Of a DNA stretch of 63,857 nt, positions 359-63,857 are shown one piece after another. Source of the DNA: Gracilinanus agilis (lineage: Eukaryota); the NCBI RefSeq assembly GCF_016433145.1, contig NC_058135.1, forward strand, positions 226,906,238 to 226,970,094. The letters are read 5' to 3'. Position 1 is the first letter of the stretch. Every line of letters begins with the position of its first letter. Under the pieces are notes generated by a model. The model did no database searches, was not told where the DNA came from, and saw only the letters and a program-made list of their open reading frames with translations. Both the position numbers and the translations under genes were made by a program.

Positions 359-560
359 GGGGGTAACTGTAACTAAGTGGCTCCGTGGATTGAGAGCCAA
401 GCCAGAGATGGGAGGACCTGGGTTCAAATGTGGCCTCAGACACCTCCTAGCTGTTCCTCCCTGGGGAAGTCACTTAACCCCCATTACCTAGCCCTTACTG
501 CTCTTCTGCCTTAGAACAATATTGCTTCTAAGATGGAAGATAAGGGTTTGTTTGTTTTAA
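359..560 (+). mobile_element. Older marsupial core-SINE inside L2-like sequence
   Basis: gtggattgagagcc...ctgggttcaaatgtggcctcagacac...aagtcacttaaccccc. Confidence 0.75.
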
Positions 561-1476
561 AGAGAGATCATGTGGAGGTAGGATTGACCAAACATGGCAA
601 TGGATTGGGAGTTGAGGTGAGGGAAAGAGCCAGAGAACTCATAATTCAGAAGTGTGGGTAACTGGAGAGATGGCAGTGCCACTTAGGGGGAGGGAAATTA
701 GGAAGCGGGTCAGGGGAAGAAGAATTTGGTTTAGGATATACTGAGCTTAGGCCGGTAAGAAAGGAAGCAAACTCTTCGATCTCATTCATTGGAAGCTGAT
801 CCAAGCTGGGGCTAGCGAAGGGGTAGTTGGGCCATTTAGGGCCTTGCCTGCCACTAGTTCCATCCCCCAAAGTGTTCTGGCTCTGCCTGGCCTCAGCCTC
901 ACATTCTTGGTTTTCCTTCTTGGCGATAAGCCCTGGGCCTGGCTTTGGACCAAGAAGAGAGGTCAGCCGGATTAGCTGATCTGCTTGGGCCTGACCAGGG
1001 TTGGCCTTTCCAGTCCCATCAGCCTGGCTATGGTCCAGATCACACAGTTTCATCCTTGGCCAACATCAGAACTCTGGTCTTGACACCCCCAGCCTCCCCG
1101 AGAGTCTTGATGCAGCCACCCCCAACCTTTTAGCTGACTTAAGATTCTTGGTTCCCATCCTGCCTTCTGGTCCTATCATCCTAGGACAAGAATCCTGTCC
1201 TAAATCTTCAGATATATCCTTCCCCTCCACCTATTCCTAGGCCTTCAGACCCAACCTGGAGTTATGAGGCTCTGTCTGATGTCTTAACTGGGGAAGGGGG
1301 GAATGTTGATCATTTAGCTGCTGGGGACTTCTCTAAACCAAGGAGAGTAGGACAGGAGATGAGAGGGCCCTCTAAGCCACTGGGGAAAATTTCTCCGGTT
1401 CCTGCCCTCCACTGATCCTCTACCTGGTTCTAGGCCCCAGGCTTATCCTTACCCCAGTATTCTCTTGTCCTCACAG

Positions 1477-48888: not shown

Positions 48889-51329
48889 ATGACCTCAGCC
48901 CAGGAGCCCGGGCCGCCGCCCGCCGCCTCCAATAAGCCGCTGACGCCCTTCAGCATAGCTGACATCCTGGGCCCATCAACCCGTCCGACCCCAGCCCCAG
49001 CCCCAGTGCCGGCCCGGGGCCCTACTTCGCCTCTCTGCGCCCTAGAAGAGCTGGCCAGTAAGACGTTCCGCAGGCTCGACGGCAGTGTCTTGCAAGCGGC
49101 CGAAGGTACGCGGTCAGATGCTTAGCTGGGGTTACAGTTAGAGGGACGGCAGGCGGGAGGGGGCTTGGTTGGGGTTCTTAAACTGCTTTGCTTGTTACTG
49201 CGCCTCCCTGCTACAACCTTCTCCTACAGCTCCTACTTTCTCCTTTTTTCTACACCGTTTCCTCTCTGTCCATTCCCAAATCCCTTCTTCTTCCCCCAAA
49301 TTTTCCTCCCGATTCCCCTTTTTTCTAGACCTCCTTTCTCTTCCCTCCTTCCCCCTTTTCCCTCCTTTCTCTTTCCCCTGGTATCTCCTTCTCTCCTGAC
49401 CTCCTCTACTTTCCCCTCGATCCTCACCCCCTTTTCTCTCTTTCCCTGGAGTTCCTTTCTCCCCTGATTCCTTTCCTGGATCTGTTCTTTTCTCCCCCCT
49501 GGCTCTCCTCTTTCCTCCGCCTTATTGAGCCTCCTCTTTCATTCACTGCCTCCCCTTTAATTGGTTCACCCCCTCTTCCAACACCCTCCCCTTCTCCAGT
49601 CCGGCTCCATCGAAAACGTGGGCCGCGAAGAGCCTCCTCCTGGGTGAGCTGGCCTCGAATTGCCTAGGGTCGCTTTTTCCTCTCCCCTGTGTTCCAGGGA
49701 TCTGGCCAGGTCCCCATCAGGTCTTATTCCGTCCTTACTTCTTCGGCCCGGACTCGGTCCCACCAAAGCCTGCCCTAACTGCGCTTCCCTCTGGACAGTT
49801 CCGACCCTTGGAAAATGCCCTGGCGCCCATATGGACACGAGCGCATACACGCACACAACACACACAACCACACAATCGCAACCACACTGAACCTAGGGAG
49901 GAACAATCATATGGGGGGACTCACTGCTCCTGTTAATCTGTGTACTGCGGCAGAGATAATAGAGATCCTGTAGGGCTGAGAAAGACAAAGGGACAGATCG
50001 AGACAGAAGAGGAAGAAAGAGCAAGAGCAGGAGATCTAACCCAGTTTGGGATCCGCCTTCGCCTCTTCCCAGGCCTGTAGGGTTCAGAGACTTCAGGCTC
50101 ATTCCTCCCCCGCTGTGTTTGTGTCTCCACCGCTCCGGCCCCTGCAGAGACCCGTTTGGCTACCCGGAGGTGGAGGAGGGGCACGGGAAAGGTGTGAGCC
50201 AAACCATTGGGATAATAAGGGGGGCCTGGGAAAGGCACCGAGGTCCTCAGAGGAGCTCCCAGGCCTGGGGGAAGGCCATAGGGTTAGATCCCTGGTCTCT
50301 TTTCACTCACCTGGCTTGGAAGCCCAGGGCAGTCCCATCATCCAGTTCTTCACTTCTCTCTCACTCATCTCTATCCTACAAAACTTCCTTTTCAAAACCG
50401 TCTGGACCTCCAAAAGCCTGCTCCCCATTTCCTTGTTGCCTTGTCTGTTCTTCCCATCTCCTTTCTCCCAGCTCCCTTCCTCTTTGTGCCTCCCACTCTA
50501 ATTCTAACCCTAACCCTGCCTCAGACCCTCAGTTCTAGTTCTACACCCTTCTGACCTTCGTCTCAGTCATCGCAGACACCTTGGTATGGTCCCAATCAAT
50601 CAAACCATCAACAAGTCTTTCCAGTGAATACTCTCGACCCTTTCCCTCCCTTCCCCCCGCCAGGACCTCGCATTAGCCTCCCGGCCTAAGCTCGGACCTT
50701 GCCTCAGGGAATTCATAGATCACCACCCCCCTTTCCCGAGTTAAAGCTCGGCTCACCCCTTGGGACCCAGAGAGCTTCCAGATTCTGAGCCAGGGTCAGC
50801 CTTGTCGATGCGGACAAGGTCCGAAGTTCACTCCACTCCGCTTGTCCGAAGAGTGCTGCAAGGCCGACCTGTCTGCTCTCCGGGAGGTCCTGGCCTAGAC
50901 TTGATCACACCGCTGCTCCTTCCTGTTACTGCAGGTCGGGAGGCACTGAGCCCGCTGAGCCCCAAGCCTGTGACCCGAAGGCGTCGGAAGTCCCGTACAG
51001 CGTTCACCGCGCAGCAGGTGCTGGAACTGGAGAGGCGCTTCGTCTTCCAGAAGTACCTGGCTCCAGCTGAGCGGGACGGGCTGGCAGCTCGGCTGGGCCT
51101 GGCCAATGCCCAAGTCATCACTTGGTTCCAAAATCGCCGGGCCAAGCTCAAGAGAGACGTGGAGGAGATGAAGGCGGACGTAGCCTCCTTGCGTTCGCTG
51201 CCGCCCGCAGCTCTTCGCCGGTTGAGCCTGTCTCTGCCAGAATCAGGCTCTAGTCCTCCGGTTCAGCCAGAACCCAGCCCTGAACCTAGGCAGGAGCTTT
51301 CAGATGAGGAGATCCAAGTGGACGATTGA
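48889..51329 (+). CDS. LBX2: Ladybird homeobox 2
   Basis: Exons 48889-49105 and 50935-51329 (TGA). eh1 FSIADILG, TSPLCALEELASKTF, homeodomain [26 protein letters not shown]...WFQNRRAKLKR, C-terminus LSDEEIQVDD. Candidate AATAAA at 52184-52189. Confidence 0.96.
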
Positions 51330-54300
51330 AGAAAGGCTGGCCCCTTGCCAGCAACCTGAGGGCTAGCCCGATGTTAGACTCTTTTGAGACCCACGTTTAC
51401 CCACTGCGCTAGCTCAAACAGTTTAGGTCCCTGAGACTTTCATTGCCCAGTTTTCCCCACACTGTTCCTCTTCCATTCGTGGTCCCCCACTCCTAGCCTC
51501 TACTACCCAATCCTCCATTCTTTGGGGTCATCCGATTACTCCACCATTTAATCCTACAGTGAGGGTGTGGGGCAAGATGGCACAGTCCATCCTGCCACTC
51601 TCCATTTTTCCAGGCTCTCGATCACTGCTCAAAGGCCTTCCCGCTCCCCTTTTTCCAGTCCCAGGGAGGGAGGGATCGCAGACACATCTACCGAGCTAGT
51701 TTCTTTACTTCCCACTCTTGTTCCTGGAATATCCCGGGTTCCTCACTTCTCTGGAAAGCCTAAGGCTTCTCAGAGAGTGCTGCTCCTTATTCCAACCGCC
51801 TCCCTGGCTCTGTGTTATCCATTCACCCTCGTTTTCCGTAACCTAGAACCCAGATAGATTCTATACTGCCTGGTCTCCCCAATCCCCACTCTTCCAGGCT
51901 GAGGAAACCCTTCTGGCTCCAGGCTGCGGTGCCTCTCCCTCCTGAAACCTAGTGCCCTCTGGCCGCTATAGACTTAGCCTATCCAGTACCCTCCCTCCCT
52001 TTCTTGGGCACCTTTTGTTTTCTGTGGTTATGTCCTAATCCGGTCCTCTGCCCGGAGACTTCTCCCAGCAATGTCAGTTGCTCAGGAGATGGACAGCGAG
52101 CCTGGGCCAACCAGATCTTTTCTGCCTAGGATAGGTATCCCGCAGCCTGTAGCGGCCTGCCTCTCTTCCACCCCCGCAGTGTGAATAAAGACGATTCGAA
52201 GGGGCATTTCGACTTTTCTCTCTTGCTAGAGGAGAGGACCCGGCAGGCCCAGATGCCTGGAGTTTGTGTGTGAGTTCGGCCACCTCTGGGTACTCACGAA
52301 TTGCAGGCCTGAAATGGGGGGTGGGGGAGTCCGTTCCCCATCACCTTTACCCCCACTCAGTTTTTCTTGTTACGGAGCTGACTCGGACTGGAGCTTCTTC
52401 TCCCCCTCACCTTATAGGATAGGAGGTCTGGGTCCTCGAGGGCATTTCTCTGACTTCCTTTCTACAAACACGGCTCCCTCCTCGCGCGCGGCCCCCAAAA
52501 GAGTTTATTAGGATGGCCCTGACTCTGCCCTGGACCCCAGCCAGACCCCCGTGGGCTGCGCAGAAACTGCCGAGAGGTCAGAGGAAAGGGCGAAACTTCA
52601 CGGTGTAGGGGGCCACACACCCCGCCCCTGGCTACGCACTCCGCGATGGACAAACCGGCAGTCCCTCTGGGCCAACCATAGAGGCCGTAGCGCATTAAAA
52701 GGGCCTCTGGGGGGCACTATGGCTACCCGAGGGGAACGCATGCGGCGACGTTCTTCGGTCACGCGTATAGCTGGAGCCCTGCAGTCAGCAACGTGGGACA
52801 CACAACACACATAGACAACCACAGTGGACAGAAAATAACCCACGCTGTTGTAACACAATAACCACGCGACCCCCACAGTGACGCGGAACAACGTGCTCCA
52901 TTGCGCATCACACATAACCCAGACAGCTGCACGGTCACACACGGCAACGCAAGAACACGTAAGGACACATACCGTAACATGGTCAACACAAAGACAGTCC
53001 CTTGGAGAGCCCAGATTGCTTCCCACCCCCACCTCTATCCCCTACATAGGAGCGCGCGCGAGCGTGCGGGAGGGGGAGACTTGGGAAGATTGCCCCACCC
53101 CCACACGGTGGAGTGGCTGTACCCTTCCCCCCCTCGGTAATTTCCCGGGTGACCGAGCCGCCGCTGGCTGCTGACATCCGCCGCTGAGTTTAATTCCTTT
53201 AACTTGTGATTAATTACCCGCCCCCGCCCCTACCCCTCCCTCGGGCCTGTCTGCACATCAAACGCCGAGGGGGAGGGGCTGCCGGGAGTTCCAGGACCGG
53301 AGAGAAAGGAAAAGGGGGAGGGGAAAAGCTGTGACTACCCACCGACTCTAGGCCAGGTAAGGTTTCTCCCACTCACTCACTGCCATACACTTGGCCTTTC
53401 TCTCGACTATGCAAAATCTCCCCCAATAAACACCTTAGCCCGTACTCCCTTCTGCTCTAGCGGACTGAGGTTCTGTTAGGCCCATTTCCTCATGGGTAAA
53501 ATGAGGGGTTTGGGGTAGACCCATGATCCTCCGTGGGTTCCATCCCCAGAAGAAAGTGAATGAAGAGAACAAAAGCAGCCCCAGGTCGGAGTCAGGGCAC
53601 CTAGCTTCAAATACTAACTTGGCAGCTTTTCTGGGCGATAGCTCCAGATCCCATCACCCCGTAGTCCTCTTTCCCTCTTTCTAAAATGAGGGGGGGAGGG
53701 GCGGAGCAGCTCAATTGCACCGATAGAGAGCTGGCCCCCTACACAGTGCGACCTGGCTGTGGGACTTAACCCCGATGGCCTAATCCCTGTCATTCTTGTC
53801 TTAGAATCGATAGGAAGGCAGAAGGCGAGGGCTTTACAAATAAAAACGTGAGGAAGGACCTCCTATAAAAGTTGTAATAGTCGCCCATAAATGCATAGTT
53901 CACAAAGGCTGGCTTCCGGGAGTTAAGAAAGAGATCTGTGCTGGCCTGGTGGCCAGAGAAGACTTCCTTAAAGAGGTCAGTTTAAGTTGGGTTCCTCCTT
54001 CATAGGAGGAGAGGGAAGTAAGAGCTGGGAGAATGAGGTAACCTTTGGGACTTGGCAGGCTGGATGTTGTAAGGGTCTTGAAGCCAAGGCAGGGTAAGAG
54101 CAATGAAGAATCGGTGTCTCTACAGTCGATAAACATTAAGCACCTACTATTTGCCAAGCACTATGCTAAGCACTGAGGATACAGGAGGAGACAAAGGACC
54201 TGCCCTTAAGGAGCTCATAGTCTAACAAGGGAGACAATGTGCAAACCACTCTGTACAAACAAGTTATATACAGGAATAAGTGGAAATAATTAACAGAGGG

Positions 54301-54793
54301 AAGGCACTAGAATTCAGGGGGACAGGGAAAAGCTTCCCGTAAAAGGTGGGACTCTATCGAGGATAGGACATGAAGGAAGCCAGGGAAGTCAGGAGGCAGG
54401 AATGCAGAGAGAGAGAGAGAGCATTCTAGGCGAGGGAGACAGCTAGTGAAAATGCTCAGATGACATGGCATGTCTTGTTCAAGGAACATCAAGGAGGCTG
54501 GTTTTTCACTCCCAATTGTAGGAGAAAGGGGGAAGGGGGTGCTGGTGGTAAGCTTTTAAGAACACTGGGAGTTGAGGGGGTGGGGAACAGGTTAAGAATG
54601 ATAGCCCTGAATGACAAAAGATTTTATACTTTCGCCATTAGAATAACAGAACTGACACGGTAAGAGCTTACCTTTAGGAAAATTGCTTGGATAGCTAGGT
54701 GGAGGACAGCCTGGAGCAGGGAGAGACTTGCATCAATTTTTCAGGTATGAGGTAATGAGGGTCTCTGCCAGGGAGAGAAGGTGGGGTATTTGA

Positions 54794-55927
54794 TTAAAAA
54801 AAAATTTTTTTTTTATTATTAATGGTCTGTGGATGCCCTTCCTGATAGGATCTCTATGAGCTTGGTGTAAATGCTGCCTCTGTAGAGCTCAGAGAATCTC
54901 TTCGGCTTGAGTATGCAAGGATTTCTTCTTTTGTGACACTATAGACTGTCATAATTGCTTCTTCATGCTGGTGCAAGACTGTGTTGTTTCAGGGGAGGTT
55001 GAGACACAGCATCTTCTACTTCTTTATCCATTAAGTTGGATAGTGATTCTACGGTTAACCTATAATCCCTGAAAGAGATCTCTTTTTTCCTTTTCTGAGC
55101 TTTTGCAACTTTGCACAGGTTCAGATATTTAACCGGTGCCAGTGCTTCATGGCCCAGGAGCTTCAGGGCTTTTATATACGGGAAATTATCCACAGCGTGT
55201 TGTGCTATCAGCTGTTTTTCGGCATTTAGGAATGAACCCATCTCAGTTGCAACTCTAGGCAGCATGGCACCTCTTGAGAGTCCTTTATCAATAAAGCCTT
55301 TCATAAAGACATATGGAGTCATCTGAGCATATTTGGCAATCAGCTTGACTTGTCTTATTAAAGCCTTTCCAGTTTCTTTTGTAGATTCATGATTCTGTAA
55401 TTCAAATAATGATTTAATAATGACTCTACTAGCCCTTCTCAGAAAGAGCCATTTGGATGCTTCTTTCATGTTTAGGAGAGGATCTATGTCAACTGGAGGA
55501 GTTTGAAGGCTTTTTATAACAGTTGTATACATTGCATTAAATCGTTTTGTGATTTGTGCCATAGGATTTCCTTGTGGCTTTCGAATAACATGATATAATA
55601 ATCCAAGGGTTAATTTAAGGATAACATTTTCTCTTGTTCTGTAATGACCATGTTGTCAGGAGTTCAGGGCATTTCTTGCCCAGATGTTTTGGGAACACCC
55701 CTTGGTTTGCTTGATAAATTTATTGGTCTGCCATCGAGTTCGTAAAGGGCAGGAAGCGATGTGAACAAAAAGTTAAGAACTATTGCAACTTCTTCTCCAA
55801 GAGTATATTTAACCACTTTGCTGAGTCCCTTAAGAGCTGTGGATTCCGATAACACAGCCTTATTCGGAGGTGGTAGTGCAATTGTTTTGGTGCCACCAGT
55901 CTTCCGTGAGTTTGCCATCGTGTCCTA
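54794..55927 (-). pseudogene. Endogenous bornavirus-like nucleoprotein element (EBLN), near full length, retroposed
   Basis: ORF pieces 55918-55664 and 55562-54963 plus a C-terminal piece ending TAG at 54856-54854. Motifs VLNFLFTSLPAL, AQITKRFNAM, RQVKLIAKYAQMTPY, FPYIKAL...LAPVKYLNL and AIMTVYSVT are colinear with recalled Borna disease virus N motifs [44 protein letters not shown]...LAPRSFPNL and AIMKMIGVT. Flanked by direct repeat gggtatttga (54784-54793, 55928-55937); poly(A) at 54805-54814. Confidence 0.88.
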
Positions 55928-56490
55928 GGGTATTTGAGAGATATTGCAATGGTAAAATCAATAGGCCTTGGCAACAGATTGGGCAAAGAAAGGGGAAGAG
56001 TGACCCAGAAAGAGAGGAGATGAGGATGAGGACAACACCTAAAATATGAACCTGGGGGAACTGGGAGGATGCTGATGCTCTGGACAGGAACAGGGAAGTT
56101 TGAAAGAGGGGAGGGCCTGGGGAAACAACTGAGTTCAGTGTTGGGCATGTTGTGTTTGAGATGTCTACAGGACATCCGGTTCAAGATGTCCAATAGGTAG
56201 TTGGAGATAAGATACAAGACTAGTCAGCAGAGAAGTTGGGGCTGGATAAGCAGATTTGAGAATCATTAGCATAGAGATGATAACAATCCATGGGAGCTGA
56301 TGGAAAAGTATAGAGGAAGAAGAGAAGAGGGTCCAGGATAGAGCCTTGGGGGATCCCCACTGTTAGCTGGCATGACCTGGATGAAGATCCAGCAAAGGAG
56401 ACTGAGGAGCAGTCAGATAGTTAGGAGGAGAACCAGGAGACAGTGGTGTCTTGAAAACCTGGAGAGGAGAGTATCAAGAAGAGGAGGTCA

Positions 56491-56680
56491 TTGGGGGCAG
56501 CTGGGTAGCTCAGTGGATTGAGAGTCAGGCCTAGAGACAGAAGGTCCTAGGTTCAAATCTGACCTCAGACACTTCCCAGCTGTGTGACCCTGGGCAAGTC
56601 ACTTGACCCCCATTGCCCACCCTTACCACTCTTCCACCTAGGAGCCAATACACAGAAGTTAAGGGTTTAAAAAAAAAAAA
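56491..56680 (+). mobile_element. Young tRNA-derived marsupial SINE with TSD
   Basis: A/B boxes, core, A12 tail; TSD ggaggtca at 56483-56490 and 56681-56688. Confidence 0.88.
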
Positions 56681-59600
56681 GGAGGTCAAGATGGATGATG
56701 ACTAAGAAAAGGTCATTAGGTTTGGCAAATAAGAGATCATTAGTAACTTTGGAGAGAGTTCTGGTCTACTGATTGAGATCAGAAGCTTGATTTCTGAGAG
56801 TTATGAGAGTGAAAGTAAGGGAAGTAGAAGCACCTATTGCAGATAGCTTTTTCTAGGAGTTTAGCCACAAAAGGGAAGAGATGAAATGATAATTAGTAGG
56901 GATGGATGGATCAAGTCAGGGTTTTTTGAGGAAGAAGGAGAAATGGACATGTCTGTAGCCAGTAGGGAAGCAGTCAGTAGACAAGGAAAGATTGAAGATA
57001 AATGAGAAAGGGAGAAATCTACTGGAGATGGAGGAATGGAGTAGGATCATATGAAGTGGCTTGCCAAGGCAAAAAGTACCTCTGTATGTGAGATGGGATT
57101 TGGATAGTGGGAAATGAGGAAGAAGAGGGAGCTCTCAGTGGTAGGAGAGCTCAATTTTTGAATACTTTCAATTCGCTTAGGAGAAATAGAACTGGCACCA
57201 GCAGTTCAAATGAAACCTAAATATTCTACTTTTGGGAGACACCACTGAGCCTTTCCCTTTGAGATCTTATGACCTCTTTCATGTAATTCTAAAAGATGTT
57301 TACTATCTTCTTGACATGTTTTGGCATCTGGTGAGGCCAAGAGCAAATCACCCACATATTTAATTAACTTACTGTTTTTAAATTTTATATTATCTGTATC
57401 TTGGCTCAAAATTTGTGCAAAAAGGGTGGCACTTTCCATGTACCCCTGGGGCAGTCTAGGTCCAATGGGAATTTTTCCAAGTTAAAGCAAATATATGTCT
57501 GGAATCTTCATGAATAGGAATTGAGAAAAATGTGGAGCACAAGTCCACTACTGTAAAGTAAGTGATTGTACTGGGAATAGAGGAAATTATTGTTTGGGTT
57601 GGAAACCACAGTATGTCTTTTTTATGACATGATTGTTTACAGCCCTTAAATCTTGAACAAATTGATATTGGGCTTTTCCAGCTGGGCCTATTTTTGGCTT
57701 TTTAACAGGTAAAATAGATGTATTATATTCTGATTTACATGGAATTATTATTCCTTGCTCAATTAATGAATTTATTACTGGGGTGATTCCCTCAACAGCT
57801 TCTTTTGATAAGGGGTACTGAGTTGTTTTAATCTTAACAGGAACAGCTGATTTAAGTAGGCCTACATCAGAAGATGTGGCCCAGAGAAACTTAGGGATAT
57901 CTGGGATTTCAAAGGTGGGAAGCTCTTTCACATCCTGGCTCTCTGAGAGAAGTACAGGGAGCAAATTTAAAGATTCCTCAGGTAATTCTAATGACATAGA
58001 GCTGTCTGGAGCACAAATTATTGTGGCTTTAAGTTTATATAATAGATCCCTTCCCAGAAAACTTGTGGAGGATCCAGGCATTAAAAGAAAGGAATGTTCT
58101 ACAGTTAGGAGTTCCATGCTTACTATACAAGGAGAGTTTTGGGACCTTTTGAGGTGTTCCTGATACACCTACTACATTTAGAGAGCCAATAGTTACAGTT
58201 TTCATGTGGTTTACTCACCAGGACTGATCTTGAAGCTCCAGTGTCTAATAAACAATTGTAATATGAATTTCCCACTTTTAGGGTTACATGAGGTTCCTTA
58301 CTATGTGTGTGTGTGGAATGTATGAGGATAATTGGCATAAAAATATCAGGGTCTGGAAAATTAAAGGTTTCCCTTTTTTATTCCAAGGCCCTTGCCCCCT
58401 CATCACACCTTCATAAAGATGCTTGGGCATTTCCTTGGGCAACCCCCCCCCAGGGGCATTAGTCCCCTGAGTAGTTCAGGGGCAAGCTCCACTTAAGATA
58501 TACTGTTTTGGAGTCATTTGGTACGAGTACCCCTGATTTTTATTCCTAGCATTTTTATCACTCCTAGAGTTGCTATTCCTAGAATCATTGTTATGGTTAT
58601 TATTCCTATAGTTATCTTTCAACTGGGTATTATTTCTGATTACTCTTAACAAATTCCTACAGTTCATCATTGTATGGCCCTTCTTCTCACAGAAGTGGCA
58701 GGTAAGGGATTTCAATAGTTAATTCTTGGATAGGTGCTATGGTCTCTCCCTGATTTTTCAGTTTTTCTCTTAGCATTTTATTTTCTATTTTTAAAGCTTC
58801 TACTGAGTCACTGTTTTCCTCATGTCTTTGTGCATGGCCCTTAAAAACATAAGATGCTATCCTCCTCCTCAATTCCTCAAGATCCATAGAGTCCCAGTTT
58901 GGGCAGTCAGTTTTAAAGTAGTCTTTGACCACTTTACAATTCTTAAACTGTCTACGTATTTGTCTAAAATCCCATTCTCTGGTCAAGTAAAAGTCTCTCT
59001 CTCTCTCTCTTATATATGTTGCCCATCTCAATAAGTGTGTCCATAAACTGGGAGGGAGTTTAATATTTTGTTTGGTCTCCCTGAATTTTGACCAGCTTTG
59101 AGGCATATCAGAGCAAGCTTTTATAGATGACAATAATGCTTCTCTGCCCTAGTATAGTTTTGTGTAATCTAGGTCTGAATTGTAATTCCATTTAGGATTT
59201 TGGACCCACCAATTAATTGCTCCTCTACCTTGCTTCTTATTGACAAGAGATATGATTCTATTTTTCTCACTTCTTGTTAGAAATATTTCTAATAGATTTT
59301 CAATTGTGGTCATAAGTTTGGAATATATTCTCCAATTTTCTCATAATTAAAATGGGTACTGACTCAAAAGTAGGCATATCTTCTCTGAATCTGGCTAAAT
59401 CTTGGGGGTCGAAGGGTATATGGTGTCTTATAGGCACCAACTCCCCATTTTTATTGAAGGTGGGTACTACCTTTAAGGGAAATAAGTGTTGGGCTGCATC
59501 ATTTTGTGTTCCTGCCTCTAGCCTCCCAGTCTGGTGATTCGTGGGGTAGGTAAGGGGAGGGGGAGGAGTAGGTAAACTGGGAGGAAGGGGTTGGGGGCAG

Positions 59601-61203
59601 GAAGGGTCAGAAGGATAAGAGATAGGAGGAGCAGGATGGGAAATGAAGTGAGCAGGTGGGGGAGGGAGGGAAGGGTTAGGGGCTGGGGCTGGGGCTGGGG
59701 CAAGGGAGGAGGAATAGGAGGCATCAGGGACTGGGGAGGGAAGGAATTTGGGAGAGGCTGGAGTTGGAGCCACAGTAGGGATAGGGTATGGGATGGGTTG
59801 AACAGGGGGTGTGTCAGTAGCAGGAGCAATAGGTTGAGTGGAGGGTGTGCCAGTAGCCGGGACTGGGGGAGGGATGAGTGGAGTAGTGGGAGGAGGAACA
59901 GAGTTTTGTAGGGCAGGGTGGGACAAAGACTCATAATGAGGAGGTATGTAGAGAGAAGTCTGCTGCTGTCCCTTATTCTGGGGTTTTTTAGAGTTGTTTC
60001 ATGAAAGCCATTAGCTTCCCTAACTTCTCAATATTGTCCAGTCTACCTGAAGTGTGTTCCTCATAGAGAAGCTGAGATAAATCTCCTAATTGTACCTCCA
60101 GCATACTTAGGTTATTTCTCAAGTCCCTGAAAGAAAAAAAAAAAAAAAGATAAAAAACTCCACATCCTATTATTATAATTATACCCAGGAACAGCAGTGC
60201 TAAGTATATTCATTGTGGTATACTCTCTGGGAGTATAAGCCAATTGGAAATGCTATCAAAAATTATTTTGAATAGTTTTCTTATGTTTAAATTTAATTAT
60301 TAGTGTTTGTAATTTTGTTTTTTGTCAGTAGATGGCGCTATTGACTAGGGCTACGGGTCTTTTGTCTTCAGGCCTTAATCCAATTTTAATTTCTGGCTGG
60401 CGGAAAACAAAGCCTTTAGCCTGAAGACTGAGTTTCTTTCAGAGGCTAAGTTTAGGAAAGGCAACTAGATACAGCTGAAACTTTTTGCAGCTTAAAAGTT
60501 TAATTTTAAAAGTCTGAGAGAGCTCCCCCCCCCAGGCTAAAACTGCTAAACCCAAGTGCTTCCCTCTTTTGGGCAAAAACACCACTTTTTCTAGCTGGCT
60601 CCACCAGGCTTTTGCTTCTCACTTAAGCTTTAAAAAACTAGAGACATATGGGGCTTGGAAAAAGGAAGTAGACTCCCAGAAGTAAAACTAGGCTAAGAAT
60701 TGGTTAATTTCAGCTTAAAATGCACTCTCCCTAAAGAAACTACTAACAAGCCAACGTCCAGTACCTTCATCAAAAAAATTTTTTTTGGGGGGAGGAGATT
60801 TTTTTTTGCTTCAGGATGGAATTTCTGCCTTTGGGCGTGGAGCAGAGCTGCTTCTAAGCTTTTTCCAGGTGTGTGTGGCACTTGGTTAGTTAAGAGACCA
60901 AGCAGTCCACTAGTCACCACTAAGGCAACTGAAAGAATTCCTCTCCAAGTGAGGGTCTGCTATTTGGCTTGTTTGTTCCCAGAGGCGAGGCGAGGGGGGT
61001 TGGAAACAGCCTCCTGGGCTGAGGTCTCAGGGCCCTGCCACTAAGATTAAAAATGGCTGCTTCCTAATTTATTTTAAGGATAAAAAAAAAAAGTTTGATC
61101 TTACCCATCTGGCAGCTTTATGTGAATTGTAGATCCAAAACAAGCTGTTAAAAGGCTGACTTGGGGATAGTAACAAAAGTAAAGGAAAAGTCAAGAAAAT
61201 TTA

Positions 61204-61873
61204 TGTAAGGGTGAAAAGGAGTTTTTATTGTGTAAATATTAAAAGGTTAGGTTGCCAGGGAACTGAATAATTATCCATCCCCAAAATGATCTTAGTGATT
61301 TGTTTACAAAAATATAAGAGAAAGTAGAAGTAGGGAAATGAGAAAAGAGGGTAGAGTAAGAGACCATATTCAAGTCTGGGCTTTACTCTGGTGGGTCTCC
61401 AGAGGCCAAGCCAGAGCCTAAAAGTCAATTAACAAGGGGTTTAGCCACAAGGGCTTCTCCCAATCAAGGGAGCCTCCAGGAGGCTAGTACCTCCTGGGAG
61501 GAGGTTAAAGGAGTCAGCTTTCTTCACTCACCACGTGTAGTTCTAAGAGAGATTTAAAAGCAGTCTCACTAAGGTCTCAGGGTCCCAGCTGGCACTCCTC
61601 CAAGAACCAGAAGAGCTCCTTCTCCGGAAGACCCCCTCACTCACTCCACTCTCTCTTTTTAAAAGGGTCACTTATGCTGTCACTTCCTGTGCCTTCCTCC
61701 TAGTCCAATCACAATAGATGATTCTCATAGTACTGCCTAGGGGGCAGTCAGTCGATTCTGATTGTCGTCCACTCTAGCATATGTGGGTTACAGACCTCCC
61801 AAAAATGGAGATGTTTTCACCTTTGGTGATTAAATCTAAAGATGGGCAGTGTAGATTTGATCTAATTATCACA
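61204..61873 (-). mobile_element. Solo LTR of a related ERV family nested in the proviral leader
   Basis: tgt...aca ends flanked by the 4-bp TSD ttta (61200-61203 and 61874-61877). Shares motifs (ggggcagtca, tagca..tgtg..t.a.agacctccc) in the same order with the adjacent LTR. Confidence 0.8.
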
Positions 61874-61920
61874 TTTAGGAAGATTGAGGGCACTAGTCAC
61901 AACCTTCCAGTCAGCCAAAA

Positions 61921-62640
61921 TGTAAAAGGGGAAACAAATTATGAATGGATTGGATATTTAAGCGTTTTAGTGTGGTCCCCAAGGAATTGAATAAATATCA
62001 ACTCCTAATAAAAAAGACCCAAGTCAGGATGACTTTTATGGTGGTTTATTTACAGTTAGGAAGGGAGAAGGTAGGAAAAGAGTAAGAGAAAGCGAGAGAG
62101 TTACTCTGGCCTGGTCTGGATACCCGAACCAGGAAAGGCTTGCTTCAGAGGCCCCAACAAAGGCGGCACAGAAGTTAATTAAACAAGGCTTCTAGTCATG
62201 AGGCCTCCTCTAAGATGAGAGGCCTCTTTTGAGGCTAGAGCCTCCAGAAACACCAAGGAAAGTGAAAGGGAGTCAGCCTAACTTACCCACGTGACAATTC
62301 AAAAGGAATTGTCTGAGGTCTCACCAGAGCTCCTTCAAGGCCAGGTTCAAAAAGGCAAAATCCTCCTCACAGGAACTTACCATCATATTTAAAAGACAGT
62401 TCATTTTGTCACTTCTTGCATCCACTCTCCAGTTCTACTCTGAAAAATGACAGTCTCAATTTTGTTTTGGACTACCCAGGGGGCAGTCACTTGTTTCTGA
62501 TTTGTCACTTACTAGCACATGTGAGTCATAGACCTCCCCCTTCCCCACTTAATTCTAAGATGGGTGGGGTGATATTATTCCTGGGGGCTAAAGTAAAGAA
62601 TGAATAATTGGTGAGCTAATTCCAATTATATACTTTCTCA
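61921..62640 (-). mobile_element. 5' LTR of the provirus
   Basis: TG...CA ends (TGAGAAAG...TTTTACA on minus), AATAAA at 62044-62049, TATA-like ~62386-62394. Followed on minus by TTTTGGCTGACTGGAAGG in the PBS position (tRNA not identified). Confidence 0.7.
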
Positions 62641-63307
62641 TTGCTGCTCCCCTGACTAGGACTCTGGGGGTTGGAGTTAAAGTTGCTTGTCTCTGCTGGT
62701 GGGCCTGCTGCCACTGCAGCATCTTCTATACCTGGTTAGAAGCAGTGTTGGTCCCTCCATGTAGGCCAACCACCTTGAAGTTTTAATCTCAATGTTCCCC
62801 ACCCCTGTCCCTTCTTGCTCAATACTGACCCCATGCCCCTTCTACCCTGCTACATGTGCTCAGCAACCCTCTTCCTTGTATCCTTTTTCACTCATTCCCC
62901 ATCAAGCATTCATCCTGTCCATCAAACCCCACACTTACCTTGCCTCTGCCACTTTCTTGTTCCATTCGTTCCTGTCATTTCTGCTCCTTCTGTCACTGTA
63001 ATTCACCCACCAGGTGAGGGATCCCCTCCAAGTAGTTCCCCATGGTTATTCTCCCCCCCATATCAAGAAGCCTGGTTGGAGGGCAGAGGGGCCCCTTCCT
63101 TGACTTTCCCTCTCTACCTGCCTCCTCCTGCCCACCTCCTCAGAGGGCCCCCTCCCCTCCCATAATCACATACAATAGGAAGGTCTGGAAGGAGAAAAAG
63201 AGTAATGGGTTTTTCACCCTTGCTTTGTGCCTGCTGTTCCAACTCAGTCTTAGATGTAACACTTTTGCCAGAATTTCCTACATGTGAAAATACAGCCACA
63301 TTGCCAG

Positions 63308-63775
63308 TATTAGGAGGACCAAGAGGTTGACTAGAAACACCACCATTCTGCATGTATGATTCCAAATTATTTAGTTTGATTTGCAATAACCATAACATTT
63401 GTTTAGTTTCAGAATCCCTAAAACACCAGGTCACTATGATCTTAAAACAATACATAATATGGAAGAACATCCACCTTAACTTATATACAAAATAACCACT
63501 AAGGATCAGGATTGGCATATGTTCCCATCATTGCCCAAACCATATTAGGAGGACCAAGAGGTTGACCAGAAACACCACCATTCTGCATGTACGATTCCAA
63601 ATTATTTAGTTTGATTTGCAATAACCATAACATTCATTTAGTTTCAGAATCCCTTAAACACCAGGTCACTATGATCTTAAAACAATACATAATATGGAAG
63701 AACATCCACCTTAACTTATACACAAAATAACCAGTAAGGATCAGGATTGGCATATGTTCCCATCATTGCCCAAAC
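63308..63775. repeat. Tandem duplication of a 233-bp unit (period 235)
   Basis: Copies 63308-63540 and 63543-63775, both running tattaggaggaccaagagg...catcattgcccaaac with only a few substitutions. Confidence 0.95.
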
Positions 63776-63857
63776 CGACTAGCTGTAAACAAAATCAGTG
63801 TTATTATTAGCCACAATTACTGACTAATAACAACTAATAAAACAATCACAAGTACAA

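Follow-up and report, generated by a model that had tools for sequence, protein, structure and literature searches.

Genomic context of the element

The window analysed here is a 63,857-nt stretch of the Gracilinanus agilis genome (contig NC_058135.1). On its minus strand, from 55924 to 54805, lies an endogenous bornavirus-like nucleoprotein (N) element (EBLN), a germ-line fossil of a bornavirid N gene (Table 1). An earlier note, made from the sequence alone, had proposed a germ-line fossil of a negative-strand RNA virus N gene at this place, and this identification is confirmed because the Pfam profile, the structural comparison and the insertion anatomy agree. On the opposite strand, a homeodomain exon (50745-51329) that we take, from its sequence and neighbours, to be LBX2 ends approximately 3.5 kb from the element. 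On the element's own strand, approximately 1 kb upstream, lies a degraded retroviral remnant (56900-60200, minus). Its fragments are presumably gag-, protease- and reverse-transcriptase-like, judging by their motifs; none of three frames gave a Pfam match, and a search of 52000-63857 revealed no LTR pair. At 63308-63776 there is a tandem pair of 234-nt copies that are 97% alike, representing either a recent duplication or an assembly artefact.

Table 1. Features of the bornavirus-like N element and its flanks in the window
Feature	Position	Strand	Basis or remark
Host interspersed repeat, 5' flank	55938..56300	-	genome-wide matches
5' copy of the 10-bp target-site duplication, TCAAATACCC	55928..55937	-	identical to the 3' copy
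Viral transcription start motif and 6-nt 5' UTR	55919..55925	-	GACACG from 55924, with preceding G
N segment 1, from ATG	55632..55918	-	in-frame stop 55666-55664; frame switch near 55630
N segment 2, conserved nucleoprotein core	54966..55655	-	230-codon open stretch
N segment 3	54870..54988	-	between frame switches near 54985 and 54870
N segment 4	54819..54870	-	ends at stop 54821-54819; translation and frame scan against P0001
Termination site T1 into poly(A) tract	54805..54823	-	10 A at 54814-54805
3' copy of the target-site duplication	54784..54793	-	after 9-T run 54804-54796
Same host repeat continued, 3' flank	54600..54783	-	repeat-copy continuity test

Nucleoprotein homology and reading frame

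Segment 2 has the conserved domain BDV_P40 (PF06407; E-value: 1.7e-18, 67.1 bits against a cut-off of 26.3) and in a sequence search matches the BoDV-1 N chains in the PDB (E-value: approximately 1e-11). The BoDV-1 motifs that the earlier note listed in order, from QIKKRF to GYRAS, align within this segment in the PDB sequence match. An AlphaFold2 model of the natural segment 2 only, made from a 47-row alignment, has a pLDDT of 93.6. In a fold search of the PDB it matches BoDV-1 N (9jzl; TMq up to 0.82), so that the structural comparison with BDV N suggested earlier comes out in favour of the proposed homology. In a library of predicted viral folds, the N protein of Wuhan sharpbelly bornavirus ranks first for the same model (E-value: 4.3e-9); nyami-like N does no better than approximately 3e-4 and chuvirus-like N is also lower, in keeping with the family label Bornaviridae over nyamivirus or chuvirus. 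Bornavirid N is represented in Pfam and the PDB by orthobornaviruses only, so the best matches there are orthobornaviral.

The outer segments have no Pfam match and no significant pairwise match to BoDV-1 N, and the profile comparison with Mononegavirales N that had been proposed therefore succeeds for segment 2 but not for them. Their support comes from P0001, an intact relative, and from the sister copies described below. Segment 1 is 41% alike to P0001 (E-value: 4e-15) and 46-53% to the sister copies. Segment 3 is 54-73% alike to the sister copies and is also supported by a frame scan against P0001.

Translation finds the three minus-strand segments of the earlier note where it had placed them (55918-55667, 55655-54966 and 54988-54857), and its joining of the three into one N holds insofar as all are N-derived, but it missed a fourth segment and a third frame switch near 54870. 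It had also set the end of the N frame at 54854. The stop in fact lies at 54821-54819, and the last residues that had been claimed are an out-of-frame tail. The first stretch of segment 1 (55918-55667) encodes 84 aa before the stop at 55666-55664, and the N-like part of segment 2 runs from approximately 55630 to approximately 54985. The frame is thus broken not in three places but in four, by one stop and three frame switches (near 55630, 54985 and 54870). The first switch is marked by a gap at 55628-55632 in all three sister alignments; gaps near 54870 are present in both of the sisters that reach that end, and in the C6:109.6M copy the frame matching segment 4 ends alike.

No intact full-length N frame of the kind expected of a co-opted coding EBLN is present, and the same breaks occur in sequencing run X1, one contig of which spans 54470-55980 with one differing letter and no gaps. 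Because this contig reproduces them, the breaks probably do not stem from assembly error, X1 being possibly the source sample of the assembly and hence no independent individual. Runs X2 and X3, from another organism, give almost no cover of the element at 80% likeness and carry no weight either way.

Insertion anatomy

The insert spans 55924 to approximately 54805 (minus strand) and lies between the direct repeats 55937-55928 and 54793-54784. In sense order, its 5' part reads host repeat, TCAAATACCC, three bases, GACACG (55924-55919), ATG and N frame; its 3' part reads N stop, overlapping an A-rich termination site, 10 A, 9 T, TCAAATACCC and host repeat. A 10-mer is shared by chance in such a geometry in 195 of 200000 random window pairs. 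The insert carries the hallmarks of an mRNA retrocopy, namely a viral start, poly(A) at the stop site and a target-site duplication, and its boundaries are those of a whole N mRNA. The extra G before GACACG may derive from the mRNA cap. G-GACAC opens all four copies examined (the window copy, C6:109.6M, C2:155.6M and C7:31.9M), and the start motif of fish bornavirids has been published as 'GAM' (PMC10645145). T1 has the same position and lead-in as in the sister copies; its agreement with published T/S motifs is only 11-12 of 18 letters and is insignificant alone. At 54796-54814, the A tract abuts the 9-T run that precedes the direct repeat, giving a short inverted A/T block.

The 5' flank is an interspersed host repeat that we take to be L2-like. 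Of 890 candidates, 40 were scored and all match it: one is the copy in the window, and the remaining 39 are 69-78% alike. In the continuity test, five of 11 other copies of the repeat exceed the maximum of 200 shuffles in the 3' flank and six fail. A loose-end consensus at 55931/55937 also resembles the 3' flank repeat. Because other copies of the repeat continue into the 3' flank, the insert has divided one old host repeat. The element is integrated in a host chromosome: it lies on a 299-Mb contig inside the divided repeat, and one X1 contig crosses both junctions. The CpG content of the element (15 observed, 44 expected) was judged uninformative.

Sister loci in the same genome

The genome contains four more related loci: C6:109.6M, C2:155.6M, C7:31.9M and the more distant C2:697.4M. 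The window copy is 69-72% alike in DNA to the three closest. Among the four copies without C2:697.4M, three have an A tract and a direct repeat of their own (window, 10/10 bp; C6:109.6M, 15/16 bp; C2:155.6M, 9 bp exact). The copy at C7:31.87M (L013) has the start motif and is cut off after approximately 600 nt, with no poly(A) seen nearby. Pairwise dN/dS between the window copy and the three closest sisters is 0.22, 0.16 and 0.12 (95% intervals all below 0.31), and third codon positions are the most changed. The DNA similarity among the copies is restricted to the viral part and the flanks differ. Because of the low dN/dS and the unshared flanks, the three sisters are separate insertions of sequences that diverged as replicating viruses. 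Three more decayed EBLNs, L027 (C2:62.10M), L029 (C1:112.07M) and L030 (C1:219.07M), are nearest to orthobornavirus N.

Lineage of the source virus

Sequence comparison places the source virus on the fish-bornavirid (Cultervirus/Cartilovirus) side, away from ortho- and carboviruses. The earlier note had suggested a lineage distinct from modern orthobornaviruses, and the scores and tree sharpen that suggestion. An unindexed protein search with E-values up to 0.001 returned 68 proteins; ten were looked up and eight of these are named (five fish bornavirids, a pipefish protein, a skink bornavirus and an anole EBLN). Segment 2 scores 130, 111, 107, 107, 98 and 91 bits against six named fish bornavirids, compared with 50-67 bits against six named orthobornavirus-side bornaviruses of reptiles, birds and mammals and 39.7 bits against two N proteins (L036 and L048) labelled carbovirus-like from N length, divergence and gene layout. 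Because no relative turned up when viral contigs were searched with an orthobornavirus-side N, reference genomes were fetched by a degenerate pattern.

A first, quick tree had 35 rows; a second, more careful one had 22, after 15 rows that were redundant or gappy had been removed and two carbovirus-like ones added. The broken copies were entered with X at the breaks. In the 22-row tree, the fish side is separated from the ortho- and carboviruses at 100/100. The window element falls in an eight-row clade (100/99) made up of copies from its own genome and unnamed proteins, apart from every named virus sampled. Forcing this clade with the ortho- or carboviruses is rejected by the AU test (p = 0.0027), the two such tests being effectively one (same log-likelihood drop) and the clade having been defined after the first tree. 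Neither an orthobornaviral grouping of the N (scores and trees) nor a carboviral one (39.7 bits, separate clade) was obtained. Branching within the fish side, cartilovirus included, has a support of 85/69, and the snake and frog culterviruses are absent from the tree. The genus of the source is not fixed because the fish side lacks internal resolution and includes the cartilovirus; given these limits of the tree, 'culterviral' is used here, as in the catalogues, for nearest by similarity and tree side.

Three proteins met in this comparison deserve separate mention. P0008 (XP_077432608.1, pipefish, annotated as 'uncharacterized') has a long bornavirid N-like frame and groups with finepatterned puffer bornavirus N at 100/100; it is probably an intact fish EBLN. 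P0001, from Logan, is an intact 361-aa N of the element's clade on a 3.3-kb contig and is 57-59% like the element. P0025, also from Logan, has 163 aa and is 89% identical to P0001. These two may represent either an intact EBLN or a living virus.

The N-X/P copy and viral transcription

The sister copy at C6:109.6M (L011) occupies C6:109619253-109617382 on the minus strand and measures 1871 nt between its start and the A tract. An 18-nt signal at its N stop agrees in 16 of 18 letters with the T1/S2 motif of snake culterviruses (table S5 of PMC13293379), and none of 400 random stretches reaches 14. Only in this copy was S2 found immediately behind T1 with the culterviral motif; in an ungapped scan with another published motif, the same site tied with a chance site. 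After T1/S2, disrupted frames extend for approximately 750 nt and lead to an A tract and a 16-bp direct repeat in which one position differs. L033 (C56697, approximately 520-1420, minus strand) is a stand-alone X/P-like element that starts with a GAC motif and has an A tract approximately 900 nt later. It is without a clear direct repeat, and its coiled-coil frame is 56% like that of L011. In L033, the P-like end is overlapped by a short hydrophobic frame that might represent the beginning of G.

The coiled-coil frames of L011 and L033 both score best against Wuhan sharpbelly P (E-values of 0.001 and 2.5e-5, respectively, in a small database), with 0 of 500 shuffles for each. With orthobornaviral P proteins, one also gives 0/500 for L033 and several give 2-10/500. 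For the L011 downstream frame, Pfam returns only generic coiled-coil matches below the cut-off and the ESM Atlas only unrelated coiled coils (top score 0.89); pairwise comparison of the sister's downstream frames showed no X homology. The coiled-coil frame is likely to encode P, a label that is not proven because Pfam and the Atlas are silent and orthobornaviral P proteins score modestly too.

In the two P-like elements, the terminal A tract is reached 752 and 898 nt beyond S2, as against approximately 2105 nt between S2 and T2 in the genome of the Wuhan sharpbelly virus; these distances tend to speak against X/P and G having shared one transcript with T2 after G. In extant culterviruses, the X/P transcript continues to a stop beyond G (PMC10645145, PMC12646013), whereas in orthobornaviruses it ceases just past P and a 1.9-kb N/X/P transcript is produced (PMC10288550). 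Because both fossils end early but at different distances, and L033 has no clear repeat, a true T2 after P is plausible and internal priming on an A run is possible. A stricter and less sensitive first pass over the genome found no cultervirus-like G, and only N and X/P-like fossils were found.

These observations allow a tentative reading, which we think somewhat less probable than its opposite: an undescribed mammal-infecting lineage on the cultervirus side, with at least four germ-line entries, might have combined a stop/start signal like that of snake culterviruses with an X/P transcript ended just after P and a 1.9-kb N/X/P read-through as in orthobornaviruses. Were this so, the genome would also contain culterviral-type X/P fossils (C6:109.617M and C56697), of which we found no earlier report, and P0001 would be a conserved host gene or a living member of the lineage.

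Proposed origin of the element and alternatives

The element is best explained as a complete but broken copy of an N mRNA, made by a host non-LTR retrotransposon and then decayed (probability roughly 0.88). A bornavirid of the fish-type side would have infected a germ-line cell of an ancestor of this mammal. A host non-LTR retrotransposon, probably LINE-1, would have reverse-transcribed the monocistronic N mRNA of this virus, begun at S1 and polyadenylated at T1, at the site of a chromosomal nick. The copy would have been inserted into the old repeat, approximately 3.5 kb past the LBX2 stop codon and on the opposite strand, and would then have decayed, acquiring one stop and three frame switches and becoming most likely inert. 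Related viruses of the same lineage would have repeated the process several times in this genome. The age of the insertion can be estimated roughly. With assumed lesion rates, the four lesions correspond to a divergence of about 3% (0.9-8.5%), which would give approximately 7-65 million years at 0.13% per million years (a rate quoted in PMC2912400) or 4-34 million years at an assumed 0.25%.

Two features count against LINE-1 as the enzyme: the direct repeat lacks what we take to be the classic A-rich start of a LINE-1 target, and a 9-T run stands between the poly(A) and the direct repeat. RTE elements are active in marsupials, and the atypical target site and the unusual stretch of T behind the A tract would suit a copy of the same mRNA made by another non-LTR element of this type. 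The published route for EBLNs is, however, insertion of LINE type, marked by direct repeats, a start site and poly(A) (PMC2912400), and the poly(A), the 9-16 bp direct repeats and the full-length 5' ends in three copies fit LINE-1, so that an RTE origin appears improbable. Hardly any credence can be given to the view that the locus arose by DNA-level duplication of a single older EBLN. The four related loci, with the closest three 69-72% alike in DNA, speak for it, but the dN/dS values of 0.12-0.22 (95% intervals below 0.31) oppose it, as does the finding that each copy has its own direct repeat and no flanks in common with the others. In the form of a retrocopy of a host-transcribed, conserved EBLN it retains a slight probability, although no intact parent was found in the genome (best 55%). 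It is likewise very improbable that the source was an orthobornavirus, carbovirus, nyamivirus or chuvirus. Orthobornavirus N is the best match in the PDB and Pfam, though it is the sole representative of the family in those libraries; the bit scores and the tree (AU p = 0.0027) oppose such a source, as do the first rank of a cultervirus N among viral folds (E-value: 4e-9, against only 3e-4 for nyami-like N) and the T1 with S2 immediately behind it in the sister copy, 16/18 like that of snake culterviruses.

The element is most likely a neutral fossil. Host use, as a source of non-coding RNA or piRNAs or through a truncated N-core protein begun at an internal ATG, has an outside chance; the RNA could come, for example, from antisense read-through from the LBX2 side or from sense transcription out of the upstream retroviral remnant. 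The 230-codon stretch containing the folded core is still open, the remnant lies about 1 kb upstream in the same orientation, and EBLN-derived piRNAs and an antiviral squirrel EBLN have been described (PMC12112416, PMC5834213). The frame nevertheless has four lesions, and by hand arithmetic four random breaks in approximately 1095 nt leave so long a run about one time in six. Three AATAAA signals stand on the plus strand between LBX2 and the element, few small RNAs come from a koala EBLN (PMC8449507), and EBLN-knockout mice are not more susceptible (PMC12112416).

Comparison with known elements and viruses

A survey of vertebrate genomes counted 372 culterviral elements among 1465 (Kawasaki et al., bioRxiv 10.1101/2020.12.02.408005; for EBLN context, see also PMC11521997). 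The dated-locus table of PMC11089739, which contains only loci with ages, lists culterviral N in Australian marsupials, opossum N of orthobornaviral type only and no X/P loci. In the literature searched, nothing was found on this locus or on culterviral N or X/P in opossums; this absence is unproven, and catalogue supplements may list the locus. Because its class is already known, the element alone is a good catalogue entry. It resembles the culterviral EBLNs of other mammals (EBLN-Cultervirus.76-Dasyuromorphia and EBLN-Cultervirus.101-Gymnobelideus; PMC11089739) in being a single germ-line bornavirid N nearest to Cultervirus, and differs from those catalogued in keeping both transcript ends and the direct repeat. 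The fossil thus retains the start and stop signals of a lost virus. Human EBLN-1 to -4 share its layout of direct repeat, viral start, N frame, poly(A) approximately 1.1 kb downstream and direct repeat, but they start with GAA and were found with Borna disease virus N (PMC2912400), whereas the window element starts with GAC and its core is only 25-29% alike to orthobornavirus N.

The best named matches of the N are the fish bornavirids (finepatterned puffer, electric eel, Wuhan sharpbelly, Murray-Darling carp and little skate; 29-38% over approximately 210 aa). Culterviruses living today have been recorded in fish, snakes and a frog, those of snakes and the frog having been described in 2026 (PMC13293379), and a cultervirus tested in culture did not replicate in mammalian cells (PMC12646013). 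An mRNA fossil with both ends, together with its sisters, is direct evidence that a lineage related to culterviruses repeatedly infected ancestors of this mammal. The T1/S2 motif of the snake culterviruses TRBV and ASBV is like that of the C6:109.6M sister. Extant culterviruses terminate X/P after G (PMC10645145, PMC12646013), whereas this sister ends approximately 0.75 kb after S2.

The closest parallel to the C6:109.6M sister in layout is miEBLN/X/P-1 of bats, which is nearly the same size; the window element, in contrast, has N only. PMC10288550, which describes the bat element, covers orthobornaviral elements only, with no mention of marsupials or opossums, and states that before these only a few carboviral P elements were known. 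The added value of the present genome lies in the sister N-X/P copy, through which the evolution of bornavirid transcription maps and gene order becomes testable from genomes.
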